The notes under the pieces are model-generated. The model saw nothing but the letters and a program-made list of their open reading frames with translations, made no database searches and was not told the DNA's origin. Both the position numbers and the translations under genes were made by a program. Positions 4,148 to 64,000 of a stretch of 64,000 nucleotides of DNA are shown piece after piece; the first letter of the stretch is position 1, and every line of letters begins with the position of its first letter. The DNA is from an uncultured delta proteobacterium (GTDB taxonomy: Bacteria; Desulfobacterota; DSM-4660; Desulfatiglandales; HGW-15): positions 14,508-78,507 of the forward strand of contig CAVZMS010000079.1 in NCBI GenBank assembly GCA_963776085.1, in the 5' to 3' direction.

Positions 4148-5337
4148 ATGCGTAAAAAGGGTATAAGAGATATAGATATAAAAGGAAAAAGGCTGTTGAT
4201 GAGGGTGGATTTTAACGTCCCCCTTGATGAAAACGGCAATATTACAGATGATAACAGGATACGTGAAACCCTGCCAACGATTGAATATGCCTTAGATAAA
4301 GGAGCCAAGCTGATACTCATGAGCCATCTGGGCAGGCCCAAGGGGCGAGGTAACGGATGCCTTCAGACTCACCCCTGTTGGAAAACGGTTGGAAGAGCTC
4401 CTGAAAAGGCCTGTTAAAAAACTGGATGACTGCATCGGGGCTGGAGGTTGAAAAGGCAGTCAGCGGGATGGGGTCCGGAGATATTATTTTGCTTGAGAAT
4501 CTGCGCTTCCATAAGGAAGAGGAAAAGAATAATCCTGAATTCGCAAAAAAGTTGTCCGGCCTCGCGGACATCTTTGTCAATGATGCCTTCGGCACCTGCC
4601 ACAGGGCCCATGCATCCACTGAGGGCGTAACCCACTTCCTCCCCTCTGTTGCAGGGTTCCTGGTTGAAAAGGAGATCAAATATTTTGAAAAGATAAACCA
4701 GGCCCCTGAAAGACCCTTTGTCCTGGTCCTGGGAGGGGCCAAGGTATCGGATAAGATCCCTATGATAGAAAATATGCTCTCAAAGGCGGATATCATCCTT
4801 ATCGGAGGGGCAATGGCCTATACCTTCCTTAAACAGAAGGGGACAAAGATAGGCTCATCTCGATATGAACAGGATGTGGCTGATACGGCCAGGACCATAC
4901 TGGATAAGGCAAGCTCAAGGGGCGTAGAATTGCTCCTGCCGGTTGACCATGTTGAATGTGATAATATCGAGGCCCCGAAACAGATAAAGACAACCCGTGA
5001 TGCCGAGATTGAAGAGGGATATATGGGCGTCGATATAGGTCCAAAGACCGTAGCCCTTTTTTCTGACAGGCTGAAAAAGGCAAAGACAATTGTCTGGAAC
5101 GGCCCGATGGGGATATTTGAAAGGGATCAGTTCTCAGAGGGGACAAAAAGGATTGCCGAGGCCATCGCAGGGTCTTCCGCCGTTTCTGTTGTGGGAGGCG
5201 GGGACAGCGCCGCGGCAGCAGAAAAATTCGGGGTTAAAGACAGGATTTCTCATATCTCTACAGGCGGCGGCGCATCCCTTGAATACCTTGAAGGCAAGAT
5301 CCTGCCAGGTATAGCGGCATTGGCTGATAAGGAATAA
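4148..5337 (+). pseudogene. pgk: phosphoglycerate kinase, reading frame broken twice
   Basis: The N-terminus ([18 protein letters not shown]) is in frame 2. Residues [32 protein letters not shown] are in frame 0 (about 4350-4445). The remainder (from 4426) is in frame 1. Two apparent 1-nt insertions lie near 4346 and 4447, and all three segments are well conserved. Confidence 0.9.
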
Positions 5338-5483: not shown

Positions 5484-5575
5484 TTTTTTTTGCCCCATGT
5501 TAGGTCACAAATGATATAATCCATGATCATTACAAAGAGATTGTGAAGCAATGTGGAAATATGTATTGGCAGTAT

Positions 5576-5857
5576 CCGGTTAGGATTTTGCGTCTAATAT
5601 TGATCTAATGTCCCATGGGGGTCTCTTTTCAGAGGCGAAATAGTACAGTGCCCGGTATTTTGCATAACTCGTAGCAAAGGCGGGCGGAGGGCTTCCAGCA
5701 AATTACCCACAAAGGAGGGGTAGCTATCTACCCGGAACTCCGCCGCCCGCCTGACGACATCCTTATGCCGGTTCCTTGCAAATTATTTCTTCGCCTCTGA
5801 AAAGAGACCCCCGTGGGACATACCTGCACTTAAATCTTTATGCAAAATCCTAACGGG
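5576..5857 (+). repeat. LHR family copy 2 (full, with outer inverted repeat)
   Basis: Core is 5608-5821: ATGTCCCATGGGGGTCTCTTTTCAGAGGCGAAA ... TTCGCCTCTGAAAAGAGACCCCCGTGGGACAT. Outer IR is CCGGTTAGGATTTTGC (5576) / GCAAAATCCTAACGGG (to 5857). Confidence 0.85.
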
Positions 5858-5890
5858 ACAACCGTGAGAATATATATAAAAGGAGAAATC

Positions 5891-7130
5891 TTGTTTTTTA
5901 AGGTCAAGACAGCCGAAGAAGTCCTTGAAATTCTTAAGAGTTTCTCTCCACTGGGAGAGGAGACCGTGTCCCTTGAAGACTCCATCAACCGTGTCCTCAG
6001 TCAAAAGATCGTTAGTCAAGAGGACCTCCCCGAGTTTCCCAGGTCTTCGATGGACGGTTACGCGGTCAGGGCAAGAGACACCTTTGGCGCCACAGAAGGG
6101 CTTCCCGCATCTCTGGAACTCGCAGGGGAGATACTCATCGGCAGGACCCCTGAGATATCGGTTGGTCCGGGCAAGGCAGTCAGGATACCCACCGGAGGGA
6201 TGATGCCTGAGGGTGCGGATGCGGTAGTCATGGTTGAATACTCTCATCCCCTGGATGATAAGACCATAGAGATCAGCCGTGCCGTATCTCCACTGGAGAA
6301 TGTTATCAATACCGGCGATGATTTCAGAAAAGGCGTAATGATATTTGAAAAAGGCGTCCTGTCTGAGGCCTCAGGACCTCGGTCTCCTAGCAGGGCTTGG
6401 CATATCCGCAGTCTCAGTCTACAAAAGGGCAAGGGTCGCAATCATCCCCACTGGTGATGAGATCGTCCCGATTGATCAAAGGCCCATGCCAGGCCAGGTG
6501 CGTGATATAAACAGTTATACATTGACCGCCTTCTGCCGCCAGGCCGGGGCAATACCCATCAACTTGGGGCTATGCAAAGACAACTTCGCCATCCTGAGGG
6601 AGATGGTTAAAAGGGGCCTTGATATTGCCGACACCCTGTGGATATCCGGTGGCAGTTCCATTGGGACAAGGGATATGACTGTAAAGGTCCTGGAGTCCTT
6701 TGATGACGTGGAAATACTTGTCCATGGCATATCAATAAGTCCAGGAAAACCCACAATAATCGCGAGGATCGGCAGCAAGGCCGTGTTCGGCCTGCCGGGA
6801 CATGCCGCCTCTGCCCTGGTAGTTGCTGAAATCTTCCTGACCCCGTTTTTATCAAGGTTGTCAGGTGATATTAATGCCTTTGAGGACACCCATTTTTATA
6901 TGGATGCCGAACTCACCCAGAATATAGAATCAGCAAGCGGCAGGGATGATTATATCAGGGTAAGACTTGAAAAAAGAGACGGGCGGTTATTCGCTGAACC
7001 GATCTTCGGCAAATCTGGGCTGATATCCACCCTGGTTGAGGCCCATAGTCTATTAAAGATAGACAGGAATACAGAGGGCCTTTATAAGGGACAGGCAGTA
7101 AAGGTAATGCTTTTTAAGGGCTATTCATGA
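5891..7130 (+). pseudogene. moeA: molybdopterin molybdotransferase MoeA, one frameshift
   Basis: MoeA motifs (SSMDGYAVRA, PTGGMMPEGADAVV, ISGGSSIG, PGKP). The frame changes near 6362 (ORFs 5840-6457 and 6345-7130). The likely start is TTG 5891 behind AAGGAG, because the ATG at 5840 lies inside the LHR repeat. Confidence 0.8.
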
Positions 7131-12483: not shown

Positions 12484-13781
12484 TCAATGCTTAAATGCCC
12501 TCTGCCCCGTAAAAACCATGGTCACCTGGGGATTGGCCTCGTTGCATGCCTCGATGACCTCAAAATCCCTCATTGAACCTCCCGGCTGTACAACGGCATT
12601 TATCCCTTCCTTGATGCCAACATCCACCCCATCCCTGAAAGGAAAGAATGCGTCAGACACCATTGTTGAACCGATGAGACCTCCCCTTGCATCTTTTGTT
12701 TCATGATCAATTTCATCTAATAATGCCTGTTTCCTTTTCTCCCTTTTTAATCATAAGCTCAAGATCTTTGTACGGCAGGCCATACCGGGTGAAACAGATA
12801 GCATCGGCATATTTGGTGTAGGCCTTGAAGACCGCGATCTCGGCAACACCCACCCTGTCCTGCTCGCCAGTGCCTATACCCACGGTCACACCGTCTTTGA
12901 CATAGATGACCGAGTTGGAGGTTATCCCCTGCTCAACCTGCCATCCAAAGAGCATGTCAGCATAATCCTTCTCCGTCGGTTTTCTTTCAATCGCATAGGT
13001 CTTTCCCTTATACTCAACAACAGCAGGGAGAAAATCAGCGGGTGTCTTTATCCTGTTGAGCGGAGACTGCTGAACTATGATACCTCCGTCAATAAGGCTC
13101 TTGAAGTCCACAAACCTGACGCTCGGAATAGTATGAGAGGTCATCGATGCGGTTTATCCGCACTATCCTGAGGTTGGCGCTCTTTGTCAGGAGGCTGATT
13201 GAACCCTCTTCAAAATCCGGGGCCGCAACCACCTCCAGGTAGTTCTGTGATACCAGCTCAGCGGTCTCTTTGTCCAAGGCGCGGTTAAATACGGCGCATC
13301 CGCCGAAGGCGGCTATCCTGTCCGCCATATTGGCCCTTGTGTAGGCATCGGAAAGGCTTGAGCCATAGGCCACGCCACAGGGATTATTGTGTTTGACGAT
13401 CACGGCCGCCGGCCTGTCTGAAAGATACTTAATTATATTAATGCCGTTGTCTATATCGGTCAGATTTGTCTTCCCCGGATGTTTTCCTGTCTGTATCATG
13501 TCCTCAACGGGGATGGAGGAAACAAGGCCCCTCCCCGGTTCAATGAACCTGCAATCGCCCAGCATCAGGTTTCCGTTGACAAGTTCATAAAGGGCTGCTT
13601 CCTGTCCCGGGTTTTCGCCATAGCGTAGTCCCTTATCAATGAGTTCCCCTGTTTTTTCATCAGGGATCATCCAACTCCTCTTTCGATAGACAAGCATCTG
13701 ATTCCCGAATGATATAGTAAACTCCGGCGGAAAATGGTCATCCATTACTGTCCGATACATCTTTTTCAGATCTTTCGTCAT
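12484..13781 (-). pseudogene. purH: AICAR formyltransferase (PurH, AICARFT-only archaeal type), two frameshifts
   Basis: Three consecutive frames: 13781-13140 (GENPGQEAALY, VKHNNPCG), 13144-12725 (GIGTGEQDRVG) and 12725-12484 ([32 protein letters not shown]). No MGS/IMP cyclohydrolase domain is present. Confidence 0.85.
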
Positions 13782-14882: not shown

Positions 14883-14959
<77 letters not shown>

Positions 14960-29330: not shown

Positions 29331-31131
29331 ATGAAAATGTGGAAGACGATCAGTTCAGGGTTGGCCGGCGTTGAACCCGCCGTAAGACAATTTCTCCCAC
29401 CCTGTCAAATACGCTGCCCAATCAACGAGGATATCCAAAGGACTAATGTCCTTATATCCCTCCTTCCCGAAGACCCGGAATTGGCTACAGAGGGGATTAT
29501 CCAGATCGGTGATTATCTTTATGAGAAAAACCCCTTCTTTCCTGTATGCGGTTACGTGTGCGGTCTGTGTGAACTGGAATGCAATTATCAGTCAAAAGGA
29601 GGTGCTATAAGGAGGAGGCTCCTCAAGAGGTTTATCGCTGATACATACATCTATCATATGGATAAAAAAGAAGAACTTTCCATAGTAAAGAACAAGGAGA
29701 ATGTCGCGGTTATTGGAGGGGGGCCAGCGGGGCTCATGTGTGCATATGACCTCAGCAAACGGGGATACAGGGTCACTATCTTTGAGGCCTCAGATCGCCT
29801 GGGAGGGGCACTATGGTTGATCCCCCGATACCGGTTGCCGGAAAAGGTGCTTTCCTCCACCCTCGAGAATATCGTCAGGCTGGTTGGGGTGGATGTCAAA
29901 TACAACACCAAGATAGGCAGAGGGCAAGTTAAACCTGGAAAAGCTCAGAAATGAGGGATATCAGGCCGTCTTTATCGCAATCGGTACCCCGGCCCCCCGG
30001 ACCCTCACCTTTGGAAGGAAAGAGGTCAAGGGCCAGGAACTCTCCGGGGTCATGTACGGCCAGACATTCCTCTACGAGGTCAGCCACGGTAATATAAAGC
30101 CCAATTATTTTAAAGGGAAAAAGGTCATGGTTATCGGCGGCGGGAACGTTGCCTTTGATGTGGCCAGGACCGCGAGAAGGCTTGGGGGAGATACGAGCAT
30201 CATCTGCCTGGAATGTGAGGACAGGAATTCCATTGACCGGATACCGGCAGACTGGGATGAGATACGTGGCGCATGGGAAGAGGGGATAAAGATCATCTAT
30301 TCCAGGGGTGTGAGCCAGATAATAGAGACAGGCGAAAAAATGCTTAAGATCGAGTGTCCCAAATGCACCAGTGTTTATGACCCAGGTTTTAACCCTAAGT
30401 TCGATATGACGGACATGATCACACTTGAAGGCGATATACTGATCATCACGGTGGGGCAAGGGCCGGATATCCAGTCTCTTAAGAAGGAGGATCTTCTCAA
30501 CGAAAGGGGGCAACTTGCCATAGACCCGCTGACCCTCCAGAGCCTTAAAAAGGAATGGGTATTTATTGGAGGGGATGTGCGTAGGATAGGTTTCATGGTG
30601 GATGCCATGAAGGATGGACTGACTGCCGCCGAATCCATTGAGAGATATCTGAAAGGGCTGCATATCAGTGAGGGGAGAAAAAGGGATTTTGAGTCTCAGG
30701 ACATCCCTAGGAGGAGATCATATGAGGCAGAACCCGAGGTGCTGTGGATCCCGCCGGAAAAGAGGATGCACTTCCAGCTCTTCGAAAAGGGCTTCACCCT
30801 GACCGAGGCTATTGAAGAGGCCAAACGTTGCCTTACATGCGGCCCTTGTATCTCATGCAAGGCATGCCTCTCCGTGGGTATCCAGGAACAGATAGCCCCT
30901 GTCGAGGTGAATCCTGACCGGTGTTGCGGGTGCGGGATATGCGTTTCTGTCTGTTACTACGGCGCGGCCCTGTCAAAAGAGATTGAATCCAAGCGGATCT
31001 CCATAACAGATACGTTTAAATGCAAATCCTGCGGCATGTGCGTTGTGGCCTGCCCTTCCAATGCAAGGAAGCTAGTGGATGACAGTTTGGAACGAAGGAC
31101 AGAAGCAGTTTACGCTGCCCTTCAGGGATAA
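29331..31131 (+). pseudogene. GltD/NfnB/HdrA-like FAD/NAD(P)-dependent oxidoreductase with C-terminal 2x[4Fe-4S] ferredoxin domain, one frameshift
   Basis: N-terminal Cys cluster (CGYVCGLCELEC), dinucleotide folds VAVIGGGPAGL and VMVIGGGNVAFD, and C-terminal CCGCGICVSVC / CKSCGMCVVACP. The frame changes near 29925. Confidence 0.75.
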
Positions 31132-34474: not shown

Positions 34475-34482
34475 TATGTTCA

Positions 34483-34688
34483 GCCGGGGGCGGGGGTCTC
34501 TTTTCAGAGGCGAAAATATAAATTGCAAGGTAATTAGCATAAGTCGTACAAGGCGGGCGGCGAAGGGTAGATAGCAAATTAGCCTCAATGGAGGATTAGC
34601 TATCTAGCCAACTTCCGCCCGCCTTTGTACGAAGTTATGCAAAATTCCTTACATAATTCGCCTCTGAAAAGAGACCCCCACCCCCGGC
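34483..34688 (-). repeat. LHR family copy 3 (divergent, more symmetric)
   Basis: GCCGGGGGCGGGGGTCTCTTTTCAGAGGCGAAA ... TTCGCCTCTGAAAAGAGACCCCCACCCCCGGC. It fills the space between the convergent protease and hypB genes. Confidence 0.85.
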
Positions 34689-34701
34689 GAAGCAACCCGG
34701 G

Positions 34702-35358
34702 CTATTTTTTTTTACTTTTTACCTGCTCCCTCAGCCAATTATACCAGTCGCCAAGCCCCTCCCCTGTCTTGCATGAGATGCGGAATATGGTCAGATCCGG
34801 ATTGATCCTTTTGGATTCTTTCTCGATACGTTCTATACTGCAATCCACATAGGGGATTAGATCTATCTTGTTTATCAGGAGCACCTTTGATTTATGAAAC
34901 ATAAGGGGATATTTGGCGGGCTTGTCGTCTCCTTCCGTGACACTCAGCATCATTATCTTGAAATCCTCGCCCATATTAAATTCCGCCGGACAGACCAAGT
35001 TCCCCACGTTTTCGATCACAAGGAGTTGAAGTCCCTTGAAATCAAAATCCTTGAATGTATCCCTGATCATGTTCCCGTCCAGGTGACATTCACCTCCGGT
35101 ATTTATCTGTACAGCCGGCACCCCTTTCCTGGCCACCCTTTCCGCATCCTGTGATGACTGGATATCCCCCTCAATAATACCCATGCTGATCTCATCCTTC
35201 AGGGCATCGATACTCCTTTCCAGCAGGCTTGTCTTCCCGGACCCGGGAGCACTCATGAGATTGATCACCAGAAGATTATTCTCATTAAAAATCTCCCTGT
35301 TCTGTCTGGCGATCCTTTCATTTGCCTCAAGGATATCCCTTACTACCGGTATCTTCAT
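34702..35358 (-). CDS. hypB: hydrogenase nickel incorporation GTPase HypB
   Basis: 218 aa with P-loop SAPGSGKTSLL and ENVGNLVCPA motif; intact frame. Confidence 0.92.
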   Translation of the reverse strand: MKIPVVRDILEANERIARQNREIFNENNLLVINLMSAPGSGKTSLLERSIDALKDEISMGIIEGDIQSSQDAERVARKGVPAVQINTGGECHLDGNMIRDTFKDFDFKGLQLLVIENVGNLVCPAEFNMGEDFKIMMLSVTEGDDKPAKYPLMFHKSKVLLINKIDLIPYVDCSIERIEKESKRINPDLTIFRISCKTGEGLGDWYNWLREQVKSKKK

Positions 35359-36746: not shown

Positions 36747-36825
36747 TCGTCACTCCTCTTACCATTAGCTTATATAGTGAACGCATTAAATAATTGGTTA
36801 TATTGTCCTTCATCATTATCATATT

Positions 36826-37051
36826 ATGTCCGGCATGGGTCTCTTTTCAGAGGCGAAATGTTCAGTGCCCGGTATTTTTCATAACTCGTAGCAAAGGCGT
36901 GCAGAGGGCTTCCAGCGGACTAACCACGAAGGAGAGGCAGCTATCTACCAGGAACTTCGCCGCATTGCAATACCGCTTGAGTGACCATCTCCTTATGCCG
37001 GTTCCTTGCATATCATTTCTTCGCCTCTGAAAAGAGACCTATGCCGGACAT
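36826..37051 (+). repeat. LHR family copy 4
   Basis: ATGTCCGGCATGGGTCTCTTTTCAGAGGCGAAA ... TTCGCCTCTGAAAAGAGACCTATGCCGGACAT. It lies between hypD and hypE, antisense to them, and its 3' arm carries a small insertion. Confidence 0.85.
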
Positions 37052-37083
37052 CCATGCTCGCCTTTAAAAATATGGCTACTTGT

Positions 37084-38178
37084 TTATGGCCTATGATACT
37101 TATAATAGGCCGCGCATGTCCCTTCACTTGAGACCATGCACGGTCCAACAGGTTGGACAGGGGTGCAGACCTTTTTATACAAGGGACAATCAATGGGTGT
37201 CTTCAGGCCTATTATTATATCTCCGCACGCACAACCCTTCGGCTCTTCGGGTTCCGGCACATGAAATTCCAGCATCTTTTTAGCGTCAAATTCCTTAAAA
37301 TCTTCTTTTACCGTGAGACCACTTTCAGGTATTATGCCTATTCCCCTCCAGTTCAGCATCGGTCTTCTCAAAGACATCCCCTATTATTTTTTGAGCCTTT
37401 CTATTGCCTTCTGATGTGACAATTCTCTGATATCCGTTTAATAGCTCGGCCCTTCCTCCCTCTATCTGCTCGATTAGTGAATATATCACCTGGAGAATAT
37501 CCATGGGCTCAAACCCGGAGATCACCGATGGGACGCGGTACTTATTAAAAAAAGGCCGATAACCTTCGGTCCCGATGATCACCGAGACATGCCCCGGCAG
37601 GATAAATCCGTTTACCCTTATACCAGGCTTTTCCATAAGGGCGGTTAATGCGGGCGGTATAAGTTTGTGTGCCGAATAGACATAGAAATTTTTAAGGTTC
37701 ATATTACGCGCTGATATAACTGATGGCTGCTACGGTCGGCGCTGTGGTCTCGAAACCCACACCTGCAAAGACCACCTTTTTATGCGGATTATTCCTTCGC
37801 GATCCTTAATGCGTCAGTGGTGGAATAGACCATGCGTATATCACGCCCTTTCGCACGCTCCTTCTGAAGGGATGACCTGGTCCCCGGCACCCTTATCAGG
37901 TCTCCGAAGGTCGCCAGGATAACATTATCCATCCCTGCGATCTCGATAAATGAATCAATATCCAAAAGACTTGTGACACACACGGGACAGCCAGGGCCTG
38001 AAATAAGTGAGATCGTCTCTGGCAGCAATCCCCTGATGCCGCTCCTGAAGATCGAGACCGTGTGTGTGCCGCAGACCTCCATGAGGCAGACAGGTCTCTT
38101 ACTGATCCTCTTTATATTATCGGCGATTTTCCTGCAGATATCAGGCGCCCTGTAATCCTCTAAATATTTTATGGACAT
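37084..38178 (-). pseudogene. hypD: hydrogenase maturation protein HypD, three frameshifts
   Basis: Segments are 38178-37795 (MEVCGTHT, GPGCPVCV), 37795-37705 (FAGVGFETTAP), 37702-37350 and 37377-37084 (C-terminal CxxC..PxHVS-like region). Confidence 0.88.
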
Positions 38179-38197: not shown

Positions 38198-40495
38198 TCA
38201 TCTCCGTGCTATTGCGGCGGCGACCATTGCCTGCCCGAGGCAGATACCTCCGTCATTGGTCGGGACAATCCTGTGGCTAAAGACCTGAAGGCCTCTGTCT
38301 TCAAGTGCCTTGGTCAAACCTGTAAGCAGGATGGAATTTTGAAATACCCCTCCGCTCATTACCACCCTTTTGATATCCCTTTCCCTGCTCACAATCTCAC
38401 ATATGTCGCTAAACAACCTGATCAAGCGTGCAATGGAATTTCGCGCTGATTTCGGAAGGCCTTATCCCCTTCAGGAAATCTTCAACTACACCCCGCACAA
38501 TAGGCCGGGGCATAATCCTGTAATATTCGCCTGACTCCCATTCATAGTTATAATGTGCCTCCGTGATCTGATCCGCCGCCATCTCCAGCTCCATTGCGGC
38601 CTGACCCTCAAAATAGACCCTGCTTCTTACTCCCGTAATGGCGGCGATCCCGTCAAATAACCGGCCAAGGCTGGATGTAAGGGGCGAATTTATGCCCTTG
38701 GAGATCATCTTAATTATGGTTTCCATGCTTTTTTTCACCTGTCTCTCTTATGACAGGAATACCGAGTTCCCGCAACCCTTCCCCATAGGCGTCATAAAGG
38801 TAACTGACTGCCATCCTCCATGGTTCCTTTATAGCGGCCGCTCCTCCCGGCATAGGCGTATATGACAGAGCAGCAGCCCTTGAAAAGCCTTTCTCATCCG
38901 CAACAAGCACTTCCCCTCCCCAGATTGTACCGTCCAGTCCGTAACCTGTCCCGTCAAAGGAGAGCCCGATAACATCACCTTGCAGACTATTTTCCGCCAT
39001 ACAACTCACAATATGCGCATGGTGATGCTGGACCTGTATCTTTTTGATATCTGCCTGTTCTTCCGCATAGCGCGTGCTCAGATAATCCGGATGAAGGTCA
39101 TAGGCTATTATCTCAGGGTCTATGCGGAGTATCTGTTTCAAATGCCTGATTGTCATTTGAAAGAACTCGTAAGAAGCGAGGTTTTCCAGATCCCCGATGT
39201 GCTGGCTTAGATAGGCCTTATCCCCCTTTGCTAAGACAGACCGTATTTTTTAATTCCGCGCCGCAGGCAAGGACCGGCGGGAGATCGGCCTTTAAGAATA
39301 CAGGCATTGGCACATATCCCCTTGAACGGCGTATAACCCTTGTGGCACCTGCAGTCCGCCTTATTATGGAGTCGTCGCTTCGCAGATAGATATCCCTGTT
39401 ATGTATCAAAAAGAGATCCGCAATATTTGAAAGACGGTCAAAGGCCTCGTCGTTGTCAATGGCAATAGGCTCGTCGCTTATGTTTCCGCTTGTCATGACA
39501 AGGGCAATGAAATCATACTGCAACAGAAGGTAATGCAGCGGCGTGTAAGGCAGCATGACCCCGAAATATCTGTTCCGCGGGGCTACGTTCTCCGCGATAC
39601 GATTTGGGCGCTTTTTTCTCAGCAAGACAATGGGGCGCTGAACGGATATGAGCAGTTCCTCTTCCGCGGGATCCACATAGGCATATTTACGTATATTTTC
39701 CACATCATAGGACATTATGGCAAACGGCTTCTCTTCACGTTGTTTCCTTTCCCTGAGCAGTGCAACCGCCTCTCCATTCTCTGCATCCGCAACAAGGTGA
39801 AACCCTCCCAGACCCTTAATAGCCAAGATTTTGCCCTTTTTCACGAGTTCGATGGCCTGCCTTATGGGATCTATTGTCTCTATAGAATTTCGACGATTAT
39901 CATATAATCTGACTTGTGGACCGCACTCCCGGCAGGCATTTGGCTGGGCGTGGAACCTCCTGTTTCCCGGATCATCATATTCAGCCTGACATCTGGCGCA
40001 CATGTAAAACTTTGCCATAGAGGTGTAGGGCCGGTCATAGGGGATATTATTAATTATTGTATAACGAGGTCCGCAGTTGGTACAGTTGATGAAAGGATAT
40101 CTGTATCGGCGATCTTCAGGATCCAGCATCTCCCTGAGGCAATCTTTGCAGATTGAGATATCAGGGGATATAAGGGTGGAAAAGGCATCTCGGTTTATGC
40201 TCTTTGCAATGGCGAATTCCTTGAAATTCCTGACAGGTGCGGATTTGGATAAGATCTCCGTTATATATGCCAGCGGCGGGCGTTTTTCATGAAGGTCCCT
40301 GGAAAAGGAGTCAATATCCCCTTTAATGCCTTCAACATGCAATGAAACGCCTGTGGTCGTGTTGGATATCTTCCCCTTCAGGCCGTAATGAAGCGCAAGC
40401 CTGTAGACAAACGGACGAAACCCTATTCCCTGAACAACACCCTTTATCGTAAAACTGCGCGCAACGAAATCCTTTTTCATGGCCTCGTCCATCAC
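38198..40495 (-). pseudogene. hypF: carbamoyltransferase HypF, three frameshifts
   Basis: Acylphosphatase domain, two zinc fingers (CKDC..CTNCGPRY; CARCQAEY..CRECGP), YrdC-like and Kae1-like parts, spread over ORFs 40495-39218, 39156-38710, 38738-38409 and 38425-38198. Confidence 0.9.
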
Positions 40496-40732: not shown

Positions 40733-40975
40733 GATCATCCGCTCCATTAGTATATTTTGGGTCTTCTGATAAGCTGTTTGAATCCGAGGGGATACGGTGA
40801 CCACCTCCGGATATTACAGCGGTTTAGTAATCTATCAAGGGCATGGAATCAAGTCAATGCTGCTAACAAATATATGCTGCTTTCCATAATAAGCATTGTG
40901 AAGGCCGAAATTAAGTCTCGGCATTTCGGGCAACTAGTCCATTGAGACTTGAATCTTACTCATATTCACCGATGT

Positions 40976-41258
40976 CCGGTTAGAATTTTGCATGATAAAT
41001 TTACTGTATATATGTCCGGCAGGGATCTCTTTTCAGAGGCGAAAATTTTATAAGCAAGGAATCAGCATAAGGATGTCGTCAGGCGGGCGGCGAAGTTCCG
41101 AGTAGATAGCCGGTCCTCCTTCCTGGTTAATTTGGCTGGAAGCCCTCCGCCCGCCTTGCTACGAGTTATGCAAAATACCGGGCACTGTACGATTTCGCCT
41201 TCGAAAAGAGATCCCTGCCGGACATCGGATCAATATTAGTATGCAAAATCCTAACCGG
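40976..41258 (-). repeat. LHR family copy 5 (full, perfect outer stem, with outer inverted repeat)
   Basis: Core is 41012-41225: ATGTCCGGCAGGGATCTC...GAGATCCCTGCCGGACAT. Outer IR is CCGGTTAGAATTTTGCAT / ATGCAAAATCCTAACCGG. Confidence 0.88.
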
Positions 41259-41480
41259 ATATCGCGAATCATATTTTAACCTAATGGCTATTTTTCTCCG
41301 TCTTATGAAATTTCAAATTCCCTTTTTTATTGACCATCTTTTCTTATAAATGGTATTAAGATTACAGCTTTATTGCCAAATTCCAATGCGCTCCACCAAG
41401 TCATAATTCTTACTTTAAATTGTCTGGCAACCAGATTGTTTGAGGATTATAAATCCATGATTCAATAAGGAGGCATCACT

Positions 41481-42101
41481 ATGAATATCCAAGTTGGTGC
41501 GGAGTTAATGGTCAGCCTAAAGGGCCACGAAACATCGTTCACGACCTTTTTCGTGGGAGAGAAAAAAAACGAACACATTGTCCTGGTTTTTCCAAAACAA
41601 CTATCCTTGCATAGAAAGGATCTGGACAGATTGGGTGAGGTTAGAGTGGAATACTCGGAGGGTGGGATTAGAAATGAATTCAAGACCCGAATACGTGAAA
41701 TCCTTGAAGAACCCACAGATCTCATTCTGCTGGAATACCCGACTGAAATACATCGTATCGAGAAACGGTCTCTAAATAGGATAAACTGCCTGGTTTCGGC
41801 TAAACTGGAAATAAAATTTGACAATAAAAGCCAATCGGTTGTTGGAGCCATTGAAAATATAAGCAAAACAGGATGCCTTTGCATTGTCAAAAAAATCGAA
41901 GGAGTGAAAGAACCCTTCTCCTTGGGTGATCTGATAAGCCTGAGATGTCAATTTCCTGGGCTTGTAGGAGAACAGATTGCCAATGGGGAAATCGTTCACA
42001 TTCAAGAAAAGCAAGGAGATATAGTTACGGGAATTCACTTTGATAAAAAATTATGGTGGATCCCTCCTTATGACTCAGAAGAGGAAGCTCCATCCATATG
42101 A
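41481..42101 (+). CDS. PilZ domain protein (c-di-GMP receptor candidate)
   Basis: 206 aa with RSLNR (RxxxR) and NISKTG (D/NxSxxG) motifs at the spacing expected for PilZ. First gene of the plus-strand pilus operon. Confidence 0.7.
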   Translation: MNIQVGAELMVSLKGHETSFTTFFVGEKKNEHIVLVFPKQLSLHRKDLDRLGEVRVEYSEGGIRNEFKTRIREILEEPTDLILLEYPTEIHRIEKRSLNRINCLVSAKLEIKFDNKSQSVVGAIENISKTGCLCIVKKIEGVKEPFSLGDLISLRCQFPGLVGEQIANGEIVHIQEKQGDIVTGIHFDKKLWWIPPYDSEEEAPSI

Positions 42102-57960: not shown

Positions 57961-58173
57961 TGTCCCTCAAGGATCTCTTTTTCAGGGGCGAAAATTTAAT
58001 AAGCAAGGAATCGGCATAAGGATGTCGTCAGGCGGGCGGCGAAGTTCCGAGTAGATAGCTACCCCTCCTTCCTAGTTAATTTTGCTGGAAGCCCTCCGCC
58101 CGTCTTGCTGCGAGTTATGCAAAATGCCGGGTACTGTATGATTTCGCCTTCGAAAAGAGATCCCTGAGGGACA
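57961..58173 (-). repeat. LHR family copy 6
   Basis: TGTCCCTCAAGGATCTCTTTTTCAGGGGCGAAA ... TTTCGCCTTCGAAAAGAGATCCCTGAGGGACA. The interior is nearly identical to copy 5. Confidence 0.88.
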
Positions 58174-59277: not shown

Positions 59278-60302
59278 TTACTTATATGTCTCTCTTTTCA
59301 ATTCCCTTGTCATGAGTTCCCTGACCGCTGACCTTGGGTCTTTCCCCCGATAAAGGATCTCATAGACCTGATTGATGATTGGCATATCAACCCCCATCTT
59401 TTTTGCCAGACTGAAATGCGGAGATGGATGTCTTTATGCCTTCCGCCACCATATTCATATCCTTTGTTATCTCCTCCAAACCCATCCCTTTACCGATCTT
59501 CAAGCCTACCATCCTGTTCCTGCTAAGATCACCGGTACATGTCAGAACAAGATCTCCTATACCGGATAATCCTGCAAAGGTCATAGGCTTAGCCCCCATT
59601 GCTACTCCAAGTCTGGTGATCTCTGCCAAACCCCTGGTAATCAAGGCGGCCCTAGCATTAAGACCGAATCCGAGTCCATCCGCGGCACCTGATGCTATCG
59701 CTATTACGTTCTTAAGAGCCCCGCACAGCTGAACGCCCACAAGATCATCACTGATATAGACCCTGAAGAACTCTGTTGAAAAAAGTGTCTGCAGCTGTGA
59801 TGCATGGCTCATGTCCCGGCATGAGATTGTCACCGCTGTTGGCTGTTTTGCGATTACTTCCCTGGCAAAGCTCGGCCCTGCCAGGCATGCGAAAAGTCTC
59901 GAATAATCCTGTGGCAGTACCTCCTCAACAACCTGAGACATTATCTTAAGAGTTTCATTCTCTATGCCCTTGGTTGCTGATCATAAGCTTCATATTCTGT
60001 TGAAGATAAGGCCTAATATCCTGCAGCACCTCCCTGAAGACATGGGATGGAACAACCATAAGGACAAGATCTTTATCAGAGAGGGCTTCTTCAAAGGTCT
60101 TAACGGGATTAAACATGGAACCGAGCTTTATTCCTGGTAAAAAGGTCTTGTTAATTCTATCTTCCTTTATCTGGTTATATACCTCTTCCTCCCTTACCCA
60201 CAGATCTACAAAAAACCCCTTTTCCGCTAAAAGATTGGCCAGGGTAGTGCCCCAGCTGCCGGCCCCTATTACCCCTATTCTCGTGATATCCATTTTAGAC
60301 AT
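59278..60302 (-). pseudogene. gpsA: NAD(P)H-dependent glycerol-3-phosphate dehydrogenase, two frameshifts
   Basis: N-terminus IGVIGAGSWGTTLA (60302-59955), middle ALKNVIAIASG (59941-59400), and tail LAKKMGVDMPIINQVYEILYRGKDP in a third frame ending at 59278. Confidence 0.88.
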
Positions 60303-62734: not shown

Positions 62735-62810
62735 AATTCGTATTCTCCAAAAATCAAGTTATAGTGAACGACATAAATAAGTAGCTATATTTGTGAAAGC
62801 AGGCATATGG

Positions 62811-63113
62811 ATGTCCGGCATGGGTCTCTTTTCGAAGGCGAAATTGTACAGTGCCTGATATTTTGCATAACTCGTAGCAAAGGCGGGTGGAGGGTATATC
62901 GCATCACGCAAGGTGCATAGCGCGGAGAATCTCAAAAGAGAATATTGAATGATGAACATGGAATTTTAAATTTTGAATTTTGCCTCCCGCCAATATTCAA
63001 CATTCTGAAATCGATATTCAATATCATATTATATTATTTCGCCTCTAAAAAGAGACCCCATATCGGACATCTATAGAAATCACGATGGTTAAGATGCAAA
63101 ATTATTAACTCGG
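62811..63113 (+). repeat. LHR family copy 7 (chimeric: normal termini and 5' arm, replaced interior)
   Basis: ATGTCCGGCATGGGTCTCTTTTCGAAGGCGAAATTGTACAGTGCCTGATATTTTGCATAACTCGTAGCAAAGGCGGGTGGAGG, then about 140 nt of AT-rich heptamer-periodic sequence, then TTTCGCCTCTAAAAAGAGACCCCATATCGGACAT. Outer-IR-like ATGCAAAATTATTAACTCGG extends to 63113. Confidence 0.8.
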
Positions 63114-63165
63114 TCACTATATAATACCATTAGTTTGAGACGATAGGCCTTTTGCCTTTCGCCTA

Positions 63166-64000
63166 TTATATATCCAGTTCCGTAACCTCTAAGGCATTGT
63201 TCTGTATAAACTCCCGCCTTGGTTCCACCTTGTCGCCCATTAAGACTGTAAATATATCATCAGCATCAACCACATCCTCCACCCTTATCTGAAGCAAGCT
63301 CCTCTTTTCCGGGTCCATAGTAGTTGTCCATAATTGTTCGGGATTCATCTCTCCAAGGCCTTTATACCTCTGAATAGTCAGACCTTTCCTCGCCCTTTCC
63401 ATAAGCTCTGTCATAAGCTGGTGAGGGCCGTCGACCTTCTTTACTTCTTCTTCATCGGCAATCGTGTATACACCTTGCAACATGCTACTAAATTTTTCAT
63501 GGATCCCGATCATATTTCTTAATTCCTGAGAAGCCAGGAATTCCCAGTTAACAAAAGCTGACTGGCCTCCATTCTGTCTTTCGGTTATCGTAAATTCATA
63601 CTCTCCATCCTCTTCAGTTACATTGACATCACTGATGCTGAAGCCTTCCCCTTGAAGACCCTTGAAGATCTTTTCCATAAATACACGGTCTTTAAACATT
63701 GTCTGATCACTAGGTCCTTTGGAGGCCAAAGAGGTTATAAACCTGGAGATGTATCCCCGTCTTGTCAGTTTCTGAAGGTTTTTATAATATTTAATAATCG
63801 CTTTAAGGAGGGTTACCAACTTTTGCCCTTTTATCTCCTCACCTGTATCCAGTGTTACTTTTTCATTTTCAGCTATGCGACCTAAAATAAAATCATTAAA
63901 CTCATCTTCATCTTTTATATATATCTCCTTTTTATTGGATGCCACACGGTAAAGAGGCGGCTGCGCAACATATAGATGTCCGTTTTCTATCAGGTCCGGC
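63166..64000 (-). CDS. gyrB: DNA gyrase subunit B (C-terminal part; gene runs off the window)
   Basis: [21 protein letters not shown] and the C-terminal ..ALEVTELDI. The frame stays open to position 64000 ([17 protein letters not shown]). Confidence 0.93.

Follow-up and report, generated by a model that had tools for sequence, protein, structure and literature searches.

A long-hairpin repeat in an uncultured deltaproteobacterium is best read as mobile DNA rather than as a strand-specific RNA gene

Copies of the repeat in the window

The window, by which we mean the whole 64-kb stretch of DNA from an uncultured deltaproteobacterium that was analysed here, carries a dispersed long-hairpin repeat (LHR). 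Besides the copy at 57961-58173 (copy 6), five other full copies and one half copy are present, a frequency of about one repeat per 9 kb. The cores in the window span 206-226 nt, their arms of 32-33 nt are 94-97% complementary, and no open reading frame (ORF) was found within them. The forward strand is defined as that reading ...GCATAACTCGTAGCAAAGGCGGGCGGAGGGCTTCCAGC..AAGGAGG..GCTATCTAC... and was assigned by nhmmer. Orientation is clear for copies 2 and 4 (forward on the + strand) and for copies 5 and 6 (forward on the - strand), with scores of ~240 versus ~50 bits. The parts of copy 6 and the remaining copies are as follows.

57961-58173 (213 nt), forward strand is the window minus strand: core of copy 6 (nhmmer, 237 bits on - versus 37 on +)
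57961-57977: outer-stem arm of copy 6, TGTCCCTCAAGGATCTC, pairing with 58157-58173 with one mismatch, A57970·C58164
58157-58173: outer-stem arm of copy 6, GAGATCCCTGAGGGACA, partner of 57961-57977
57974-57992: conserved arm block of copy 6, TCTCTTTT(T)-N4-GGCGAA, with its partner TTCGCC-N4-AAAAGAGA at 58143-58160
58031-58104: inner stem of copy 6, GGCGGGCGG (58031-58039) and CCGCCCGTC (58096-58104), enclosing the asymmetric apex
58051-58059 and 58064-58070: motifs of the copy 6 apex as read on the + strand, GTAGATAGC and CCTCCTT respectively
1053-1151, + strand: copy 1, left half only (model positions 1-99), with unrelated AT-rich DNA in place of the right half
5608-5821, + strand: core of copy 2 with mismatch T5616·G5813, hosted in its loop by an 'F2' hairpin (about 5573-5862)
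34483-34688, strand undefined: copy 3, mismatch C34491·A34680
36826-37051, + strand: core of copy 4, in an 'X/Y' host hairpin, mismatch G36837·T37040
36773 to near 37090: X/Y host of copy 4, with TATAGTGAACG as its left end at 36773 and a truncation of its right end near 37090
41012-41225, - strand: core of copy 5, with a perfect outer stem, inside an F2 host hairpin (40971-41263)
62811-63069, + strand: copy 7, a degenerate core with an internal insertion, inside an X/Y host hairpin (62760-63121)

The core of ~214 bp folds as one long hairpin (for copy 6, -83.6 kcal/mol on the forward and -92.0 kcal/mol on the reverse strand). Its outermost layer, ATGTCC followed by a variable box of 4-8 nt, forms an outer stem that is free in sequence yet paired. 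Inside this stem lie the invariant blocks TCTCTTTT-N4-GGCGAA and TTCGCC-N4-AAAAGAGA, in which the N4 positions form an unpaired bubble, and further inward come partly paired mid-sections, an invariant GGCGGGCGG/CCGCCCGCC stem and the asymmetric apex. As read from the sequence, the local mini-hairpin in the arms is only 3-4 bp long (CTCT-TTTC-AGAG).

Copy 3 departs from this plan. Its outer 8 bp (GCCGGGGG...) are unrelated to those of the other copies, the apex is inverted, and the arms form a palindromised mosaic. By nhmmer one strand scores 93.6 bits and the other 95.5; the apex aligns to the family in the '+' sense and the mid-sections in the '-' sense. Locus L170, from a strain whose HypA is identical, contains the orthologous copy; there the interior is canonical and lies in the '+' sense, the N4 bubble in the '-' sense. 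Because apex, mid-sections and orthologue disagree, the orientation of copy 3 is undefined.

A wider set of copies

A two-arm pattern search returned 94 metagenome stretches, and a profile search of these together with the window gave 111 full-length places in 708 kb, which collapsed at 97% identity to 90 non-redundant copies. Metagenome copies are phylogenetically non-independent, and therefore distinct states and singletons were counted as well as alignment cells. Forty-nine copies belong to group A, the family of the window, and 41 to group B, mostly a sister family from other samples. The two families have the same invariant blocks and different interiors, with ~35-40% divergence elsewhere; the arm blocks are unchanged in the 44 aligned copies of family A and common to the sister family. 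Orientation, taken from the interior, was coherent with the N4 marker, the reversed N4 configuration occurring in 0 of these 44 copies, and orientation flips do occur, as in L170.

GyrA places the host among uncultured Thermodesulfobacteriota/'Deltaproteobacteria', with nearest relatives at 96-97% identity on short contigs. A one-arm motif scan of the species genome collection gave 71 single hits, approximately the number expected by chance, of which two archaeal hits were coding sequence. The arm motif had no match in viral contigs, plasmids or a full-text literature search, and exact-protein look-ups for the FmdE, BPL and MobB neighbours found no match.

Co-variation of the outer-stem arms

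A reading of the window made from its letters alone (the sequence-only reading) had claimed that the two arms of the outer stem change together between copies. The arm sequences that it quoted are correct, and in the 44-copy alignment of family A the effect proved highly non-random. Over the 13 outer-stem pairs, 93.5% of cells were paired compared with 81.4% in column-preserving shuffles, and double changes were present at 9 pairs (75 cells); 0 of 500 shuffles reached the observed values, and no slid register of the stem came near the observed pairing. No segment of the element varies more than the box (columns 7-14), and of all columns 7 and 214 vary most; there the pair is G:C in 19 copies, C:G in 9, U:A in 7 and A:U in 3. 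Length changes are likewise compensated in both arms, L095 being longer by two G:C pairs and L159 by one pair. The co-variation supports the outer-stem helix only; the conserved stems are uninformative in this respect because they never vary. At the copy 5 locus (window 40740-41481), where the intergenic DNA is ~95% identical to the orthologue L171:590-1325, this most variable pair is G:C in the window and T·T in L171; columns 7/214 seem to form a hotspot at which both arms change within even short periods.

Copy-and-paste from a few master copies, which the sequence-only reading had named as the explanation that would undo its claim, did not account for the box states. On the interior tree these are scattered, columns 7/214 requiring 20 changes by parsimony against 23 for shuffled states, with similar values elsewhere. 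A few master copies were rejected as their source on this near-random placement, although recombination between copies would look alike.

Arms that agree could also be those of a passive DNA palindrome, kept alike by template switching or intramolecular gene conversion with no structural selection. The indels compensated in both arms of L095 and L159 fit such a process. So does copy 3, where mid-sections and apex are palindromised mosaics of both canonical arms whilst the orthologue in L170 keeps asymmetric arms, and so do the cases in which the interior is inverted against the arms, or the core against its X/Y or F2 host. Short direct repeats mark the junctions of solo palindromes and deletions, and the correction of quasi-palindromes is reportedly an established mutational route, known from work by Ripley in 1982 and from the Lovett laboratory. 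However, blind homogenisation should erase the N4 bubble, since 9 bp of one and the same perfect stem separate it from the box, and yet N4 stays unpaired in 41/44 and 33/39 copies and is complementary in no more than 3/44 and 6/39. It should also erase the asymmetry of the mid-sections, which has been retained since the split of families A and B, and orthologous pairs mostly differ by uncompensated single-arm changes. In family B, an ancestral T·G beside TCTC became C:G in seven cases and T:A in six, near-equally in the two directions as arm-to-arm copying would have it, and a non-pair in only one, with the changes scattered over the core (interior) tree. Blind copying between arms is not the whole story, because N4 persists, the mid-sections stay asymmetric and T·G is resolved to pairs; as a full account of the LHR we consider it rather unlikely.

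The suggestion that the outer stem is more than a passively decaying palindrome was thus borne out, by the pairing kept in the most variable segment, the persistence of N4 and the resolution of T·G. Pairing is favoured at some positions and not at others, and these data therefore point to a position-specific constraint acting on a folded single strand.

Mismatches and the question of a strand

The same reading had noted exactly one mismatch, a transition, in the outer 17-18 bp of each of copies 2, 3, 4 and 6, a perfect outer stem in copy 5 and both types of mismatch in copy 7. All of this was found again, copy 7 having one G·T, one C·A and an indel. The four discovery mismatches are substitutions read from one assembly. 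It had further proposed that all four are G:U-compatible on the same strand of the element. This holds for copies 2, 4 and 6, in which G:U falls on the forward strand of the element (in copy 6 the mismatch is A·C on the window + strand and G·U on the - strand), and it does not extend to copy 3, a copy that is not orientable. Judged by the asymmetric centre, the criterion that had been put forward, copy 3 would be A:C on the forward strand, giving 3/4 and not 4/4. The chance of 1 in 16 also needs amending: as the strand was not named beforehand, 4/4 would be expected in 1 of 8 cases, and 3/3 in 1 of 4. Within the window alone, the same-strand G:U pattern is not beyond chance.

Two mutational causes of the window pattern were considered and rejected. 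Replication-strand mutation bias does not fit since the window lies on one replichore (next to dnaA-dnaN-gyrB), yet copies 2 and 4 have the G:U strand on + and copy 6 has it on -. Transcription-strand mutation bias does not fit either, the copies being both sense and antisense to their neighbours. Locus L166 has the order dnaA-dnaN-gyrB-gyrA, the right end of the window is gyrB (63166-63945 and beyond), and GC skew is most negative there; from the gene order in L166, the window probably ends close to the replication origin.

The strand was then tallied over the outer 14 bp of 80 further non-redundant copies, with the discovery copies removed and the ancestral T·G column of family B left out. 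On the forward strand there were 17 G:U-type against 13 A:C-type cells in family A, and 14 against 4 in family B. The larger set therefore leans the way that the sequence-only reading had predicted (31:17), and falls short of significance (p=0.059). Distinct column/state combinations gave 19 G:U against 11 A:C (p=0.20), singletons 13 against 6 (p=0.17), and a strand-neutral arm-versus-arm alignment of whole group-A hairpins, window copies included, 18:15. A count of G:U pairs in the inner helices of RNAalifold (80 versus 2) was discarded as circular, because the structure had been predicted on that strand with G:U allowed.

These counts bear on the proposal that the LHR is a strand-specific structured RNA, with one strand transcribed, the hairpin selected as RNA and G:U tolerated on that strand only. 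The shared strand of copies 2, 4 and 6, which replication-strand bias is unable to explain, the similar lean of independent copies in all three tallies, the strong co-variation of the outer stem and two consensus G:U pairs beside the inner stem on the forward strand are what such an RNA would show. However, no tally is significant (p=0.06 to 0.2) and transversions are not depleted: outer-stem mismatches comprise 48 transitions and 49 transversions, the same ratio as in unpaired columns (355:356), and therefore wobble-compatible mismatches are not preferentially kept. It is the opposite strand that has the lower RNA folding energy in 36/44 copies (mean difference 4 kcal/mol) and the better consensus fold (-54.0 versus -52.1 kcal/mol, 45 versus 38 pairs, 5 versus 2 consensus G:U pairs). 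Orientation relative to neighbouring genes is random, with sense:antisense counts against co-directional neighbouring ORFs of 8:6 (A) and 5:9 (B). Moreover, the interior can be inverted relative to the arms (L170, copy 3), and copies are gained and lost between near-identical strains. By the same orientation counts, and by presence that varies between close strains, the LHR lacks the conserved genomic context expected of an RNA gene or cis-regulatory RNA.

Signals of expression were also lacking. No promoter or terminator signal rose above the shuffled background, the copy 6 region having one terminator site against 0.4 expected, and no T run directly follows the hairpin in copies 2, 4, 5, 6 and 7. 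Rfam gave no match to the element: at gathering thresholds the only match was a tRNA, and E-value mode added two short hits at chance level. That tRNA gene, at 14883-14956 (64.9 bits), is the sole Rfam match in the window. At copy 3, which lies between the convergent genes hycI and hypB, a T9 run stands on the + strand 16 nt downstream, after a palindromic CCCGGG (34689-34730), and this hairpin may have landed in or beside a terminator region.

Selection on one defined strand, and on RNA in particular, is thus not supported, with p values of about 0.06-0.2 and with folding energies and orientation data that contradict it. A strand preference is possible and unproven, and a strand-specific structured RNA seems to us distinctly unlikely. 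The best explanation of the single G:U-compatible mismatches in the window copies is that they are ordinary recent transitions.

Turnover and genomic context

All 111 full-length places are intergenic and lie between ordinary genes, for example inside the hyp operon and between gyrB and gyrA. Comparison with close relatives reveals that the element moves, or is at any rate unstable, over short times. In a relative whose GyrA is 96% identical, the sites of copies 6 and 7 are empty, with intergenic gaps of 61 nt and 100 nt (the copy 7 site is empty in both L167 and L168), and this relative has a copy of its own in the gpsA-BPL gap, where the window has none. In L170, the core of copy 4 and half of its host repeat have been deleted, leaving ATGCCCGG as a scar. 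Truncated and solo remnants of the element also exist.

The copy 3 site shows a different kind of change. L170:2468-2707 and window 34475-34701 have the locus and the outer stem in common, the latter with one compensated pair difference (A:T versus G:C), whilst the interior is canonical group-A in L170 and a palindromised mosaic in the window. A copy's interior can therefore be replaced or rebuilt while its outer stem stays.

The gyrB-gyrA spacers (complement of window 62735-62760, L167:3249-3348 and L166:9877-10000) contain short GGCGAA...TTCGCC inverted repeats with ATGGCGCATGGGCC-like motifs, which have the appearance of ancient, eroded pieces from this repeat superfamily.

In the window, a minimum of six or seven genes with housekeeping functions are truncated or broken into two ORFs: pgk, moeA, purH, a pyridine-nucleotide oxidoreductase, hypD, hypF and gpsA (4426-5337, 5840-7130, 12713-13781, 29331-31131, 37325-38178, 38710-40495 and 59387-59941). 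In L167, from the 96% relative, gpsA is intact (340 aa). The split genes are either widespread pseudogenes or indel errors of a long-read assembly, and therefore the assembly may carry indel errors.

Nesting in host hairpins

In many cases the core lies nested within a smaller hairpin repeat, at the centre of its loop. F2 (GATGTCCGGTTAGAATTTTGCAT...) hosts copies 2 and 5, and X/Y (TATAGTGAACG...CGTTCACTATA) hosts copies 4 and 7, the core lying the opposite way round relative to X/Y in copy 7 compared with copy 4. In family B the end of the host hairpin (TTCATCCGGTTAATGA...) resembles F2, and therefore the host-plus-core architecture is conserved in two lineages. With another host in L167, at least four unrelated or distantly related hosts are known (F2, X/Y, the group-B host and that in L167).

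Without the core, F2 is a separate hairpin repeat of ~80 nt with ends GATGTCCGGTTAGAATTTTGCAT and ATGCAAAATTCTAACCGGACATC, found in the window (40971-41263 and ~5573-5862), L102, L108, L109, L119, L149 and others. Its stem also has compensated changes, GATTTCC/GGAAATC in L119 versus GATGTCC/GGACATC. X/Y without the core measures ~107 nt and occurs in the window (36773-37090 and 62760-63121) and in L081, L083, L088, L095, L097, L099, L100, L110 and L151, with the core either way round. In L119, X/Y carries an F2-plus-core composite, a triple nesting. Some hosts have a solo palindrome exactly at the place of the core, namely ATGGCCCATGGGCCAT, ATGGCCCATGGCCCAT, ATGTCCTGCAGGGACAT or ATGTCAT; these are probably deletion scars. 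The sites are as follows.

L115:4889-4904: solo palindrome
L127:8042-8057: solo palindrome
L085:3837-3853: solo palindrome
L123 (complement): solo palindrome, with the X motif ~470 nt from the 5' end of the reverse complement

Nesting raises the possibility that the outer stem lies outside the mobile unit, a shorter core (about RGGGRTCTC...GAGAYCCCY) being inserted at the dyad of existing palindromes or in hairpin loops, so that the arms are the halves of the target. The core does sit at the loop centre of the four or more hosts, a group-B host is found with only the 16-bp perfect palindrome ATGGCCCATGGGCCAT in its place, and the outer 8-10 bp of copy 3 (GCCGGGGG...) are unrelated to other copies and perfectly paired, with the same outer stem around another interior in L170. 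However, solo palindromes are rare (about 4 versus 111 filled sites, none of them in the window). The L085 solo (ATGTCCTGCAGGGACAT) carries an extra G, the base expected from deletion between direct repeats CCTGCAGG(G)A made by the self-complementary box, and is not the empty target predicted; the copy 4 site in L170, with ATGCCCGG kept and half of Y lost, is plainly a deletion. Columns 9-11 and 14, inside any plausible core end, also co-vary. No target duplication is consistent for all copies, copy 6 and the GGGAGGG box being without a palindromic dinucleotide. Moreover, insertion into palindromes only shifts the question to why the target palindromes co-vary, and we judge it very unlikely that the outer stem is foreign to the element.

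Comparison with known repeats

Among described repeats the LHR is most readily compared with REPINs and with long-hairpin MITEs (miniature transposable elements bounded by inverted repeats). REPINs have invariant ends, form a hairpin, commonly show compensatory changes and are mobilised by a Y1/HUH transposase, the REP-associated tyrosine transposase (RAYT; REP, repetitive extragenic palindromic sequence) (Bertels & Rainey 2011, PMC3116915). Like them, the LHR is a non-coding, intergenic, multi-copy hairpin with two inverted invariant blocks and a spacer defined by length and pairing capacity; both show excision or absence polymorphism, and for both a single-stranded folded intermediate is proposed. 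However, the core of the LHR is 214 bp, and core plus host hairpin about 290-360 bp, compared with about 70-110 bp for a REPIN. A REPIN unit is built from REP palindromes of about 20-35 nt, whereas the local mini-hairpin in LHR arms is far shorter. No REP-like GTAG foot was recognised and no RAYT gene, which in REPIN systems is present once and has the repeats on its flanks, was found in the window or the 708 kb, and the LHR differs further by its three-tier nesting and by an asymmetric apex enclosed by a second invariant GC stem.

Long-hairpin bacterial MITEs include Correia, ERIC, bcr1 and Chunjie of Geobacter; bcr1 and Chunjie fold as long hairpins with compensatory changes, Chunjie at -98 to -130 kcal/mol (Delihas 2011, PMC3184786). 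The LHR falls in the same 100-250 bp class, with long terminal inverted repeats, very stable hairpins (-84 to -138 kcal/mol), intergenic and intra-operon insertion, and insertion polymorphism of a multi-copy repeat between related genomes. Unlike these MITEs it has no direct target duplication that could be identified and no cognate insertion sequence (IS) was found in the window or the 708 kb, and its terminal repeat contains a variable compensated box, an unusual feature if a repeat is bound as duplex DNA. Overall, the LHR has the descriptive traits of a MITE and the structural traits of a REPIN, at 2-3 times REPIN size.

Integron attC sites and the ends of IS200/IS605 elements also have sequence-free paired stems by short conserved boxes, and a bubble or extrahelical bases in the stem; strand-specific use of such sites would predict an asymmetry of G·T versus A·C. 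However, the LHR is far longer, its copies are dispersed both ways, and its neighbours are housekeeping genes in both orientations. It lacks RYYYAAC/GTTRRRY core sites, its ends being ATGTCC/GGACAT, and has no cassette array and no integrase nearby. As identities of the LHR, an attC site, an intrinsic terminator and an Rfam RNA family were rejected on every feature tested.

IS1397 and ISKpn1 are coding insertion sequences that insert into palindromic units with a defined target duplication. They are like the LHR in being mobile DNA at the centre of existing hairpin repeats, forming nested palindromes; the unit inserted here is non-coding, and targeting is suggested by the nesting only.

Discussion

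The best reading of the LHR is that of a mobile hairpin repeat rather than a strand-specific RNA gene. More specifically, we think it somewhat probable that it is a non-autonomous, non-coding, MITE/REPIN-like mobile DNA repeat that depends on its fold, pairing being kept at the single-strand level. Given copies dispersed both ways and fast turnover, the most parsimonious view is that the role of the fold lies in the propagation of the element itself. The invariant blocks would be contact sites for a trans-acting mobilising protein, and the box would need only to pair if the element were used in folded single-stranded form. The likeliest such form would be single-stranded DNA (ssDNA) or a cruciform arising in mobilisation, in line with proposals made for REPINs and for ends of the IS200/IS605 type. 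Any copy that lost pairing would then stop spreading, so that we infer selection through mobilisation. The uncompensated single-arm changes between orthologues fit mismatches that arise in place and are filtered when copies spread. DNA-level copying from arm to arm (template switching in quasi-palindromes), which clearly takes place as copy 3 shows, and exchange between copies are at work too.

Several observations weigh against this account of a fold-dependent mobile repeat. The window and 708 kb of related loci yielded neither a transposase, nor a RAYT, nor an integrase, and thus the mobilising enzyme and the single-strand intermediate are conjecture. The search for a mobilising gene, by clustering all locus ORFs of >=150 aa and by Pfam on the window ORFs, returned only housekeeping families, and a 1.1-kb gap between two half copies in L085 contains a kinase-like ORF and not a transposase. 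No IS with matching ends was found in the window or the 708 kb of loci. Nor could a target-site duplication be defined, no direct repeat flanking the copies. Models with duplications of 2-8 bp were rejected since they fit only self-complementary boxes: the only motifs readable as duplications are self-complementary (AT, CATG, TGCA, CCGG), and copy 6 and the GGGAGGG box are without any of them. As copy 3 demonstrates, copying between arms can by itself make a copy palindromic, and some of the co-variation may therefore be mutational and not selected. Recombination between copies, and not many independent compensations, could lie behind the scatter of box states, and the weak G:U excess (31:17) leaves room for an effect at the level of RNA or of strand-specific ssDNA.

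The compensated variable box within the terminal repeat, the conserved bubble and the hairpin-in-hairpin nesting are unusual traits. It is conceivable, if rather improbable, that the LHR represents an undescribed class of fold-dependent mobile DNA. In such a class an enzyme of HUH/Y1 or tyrosine-recombinase type would read TCTCTTTT/GGCGAA and GGCGGGCGG, N4 would tell the arms or strands apart, the sequence of the box would be ignored as long as it paired, the element would be placed at the dyad or loop of other hairpins, and the G·T excess would be the footprint of the processed strand.

Long-hairpin repeats of this kind can be mistaken for structured RNA genes, and a test of G:U versus A:C with de-duplication and orientation controls shows the weakness of a signal from four copies. 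The density of the repeats accounts for the fragmented assemblies of this lineage. We know of no described system that moves long-hairpin repeats in Desulfobacterota-type bacteria. If the structural reading of the LHR as a fold-dependent mobile repeat holds, it offers a natural experiment in which one stem combines invariant protein-contact blocks, a paired box free in sequence and an unconstrained bubble, and it would lend itself well to a search for the enzyme by which long-hairpin repeats are moved in these bacteria.

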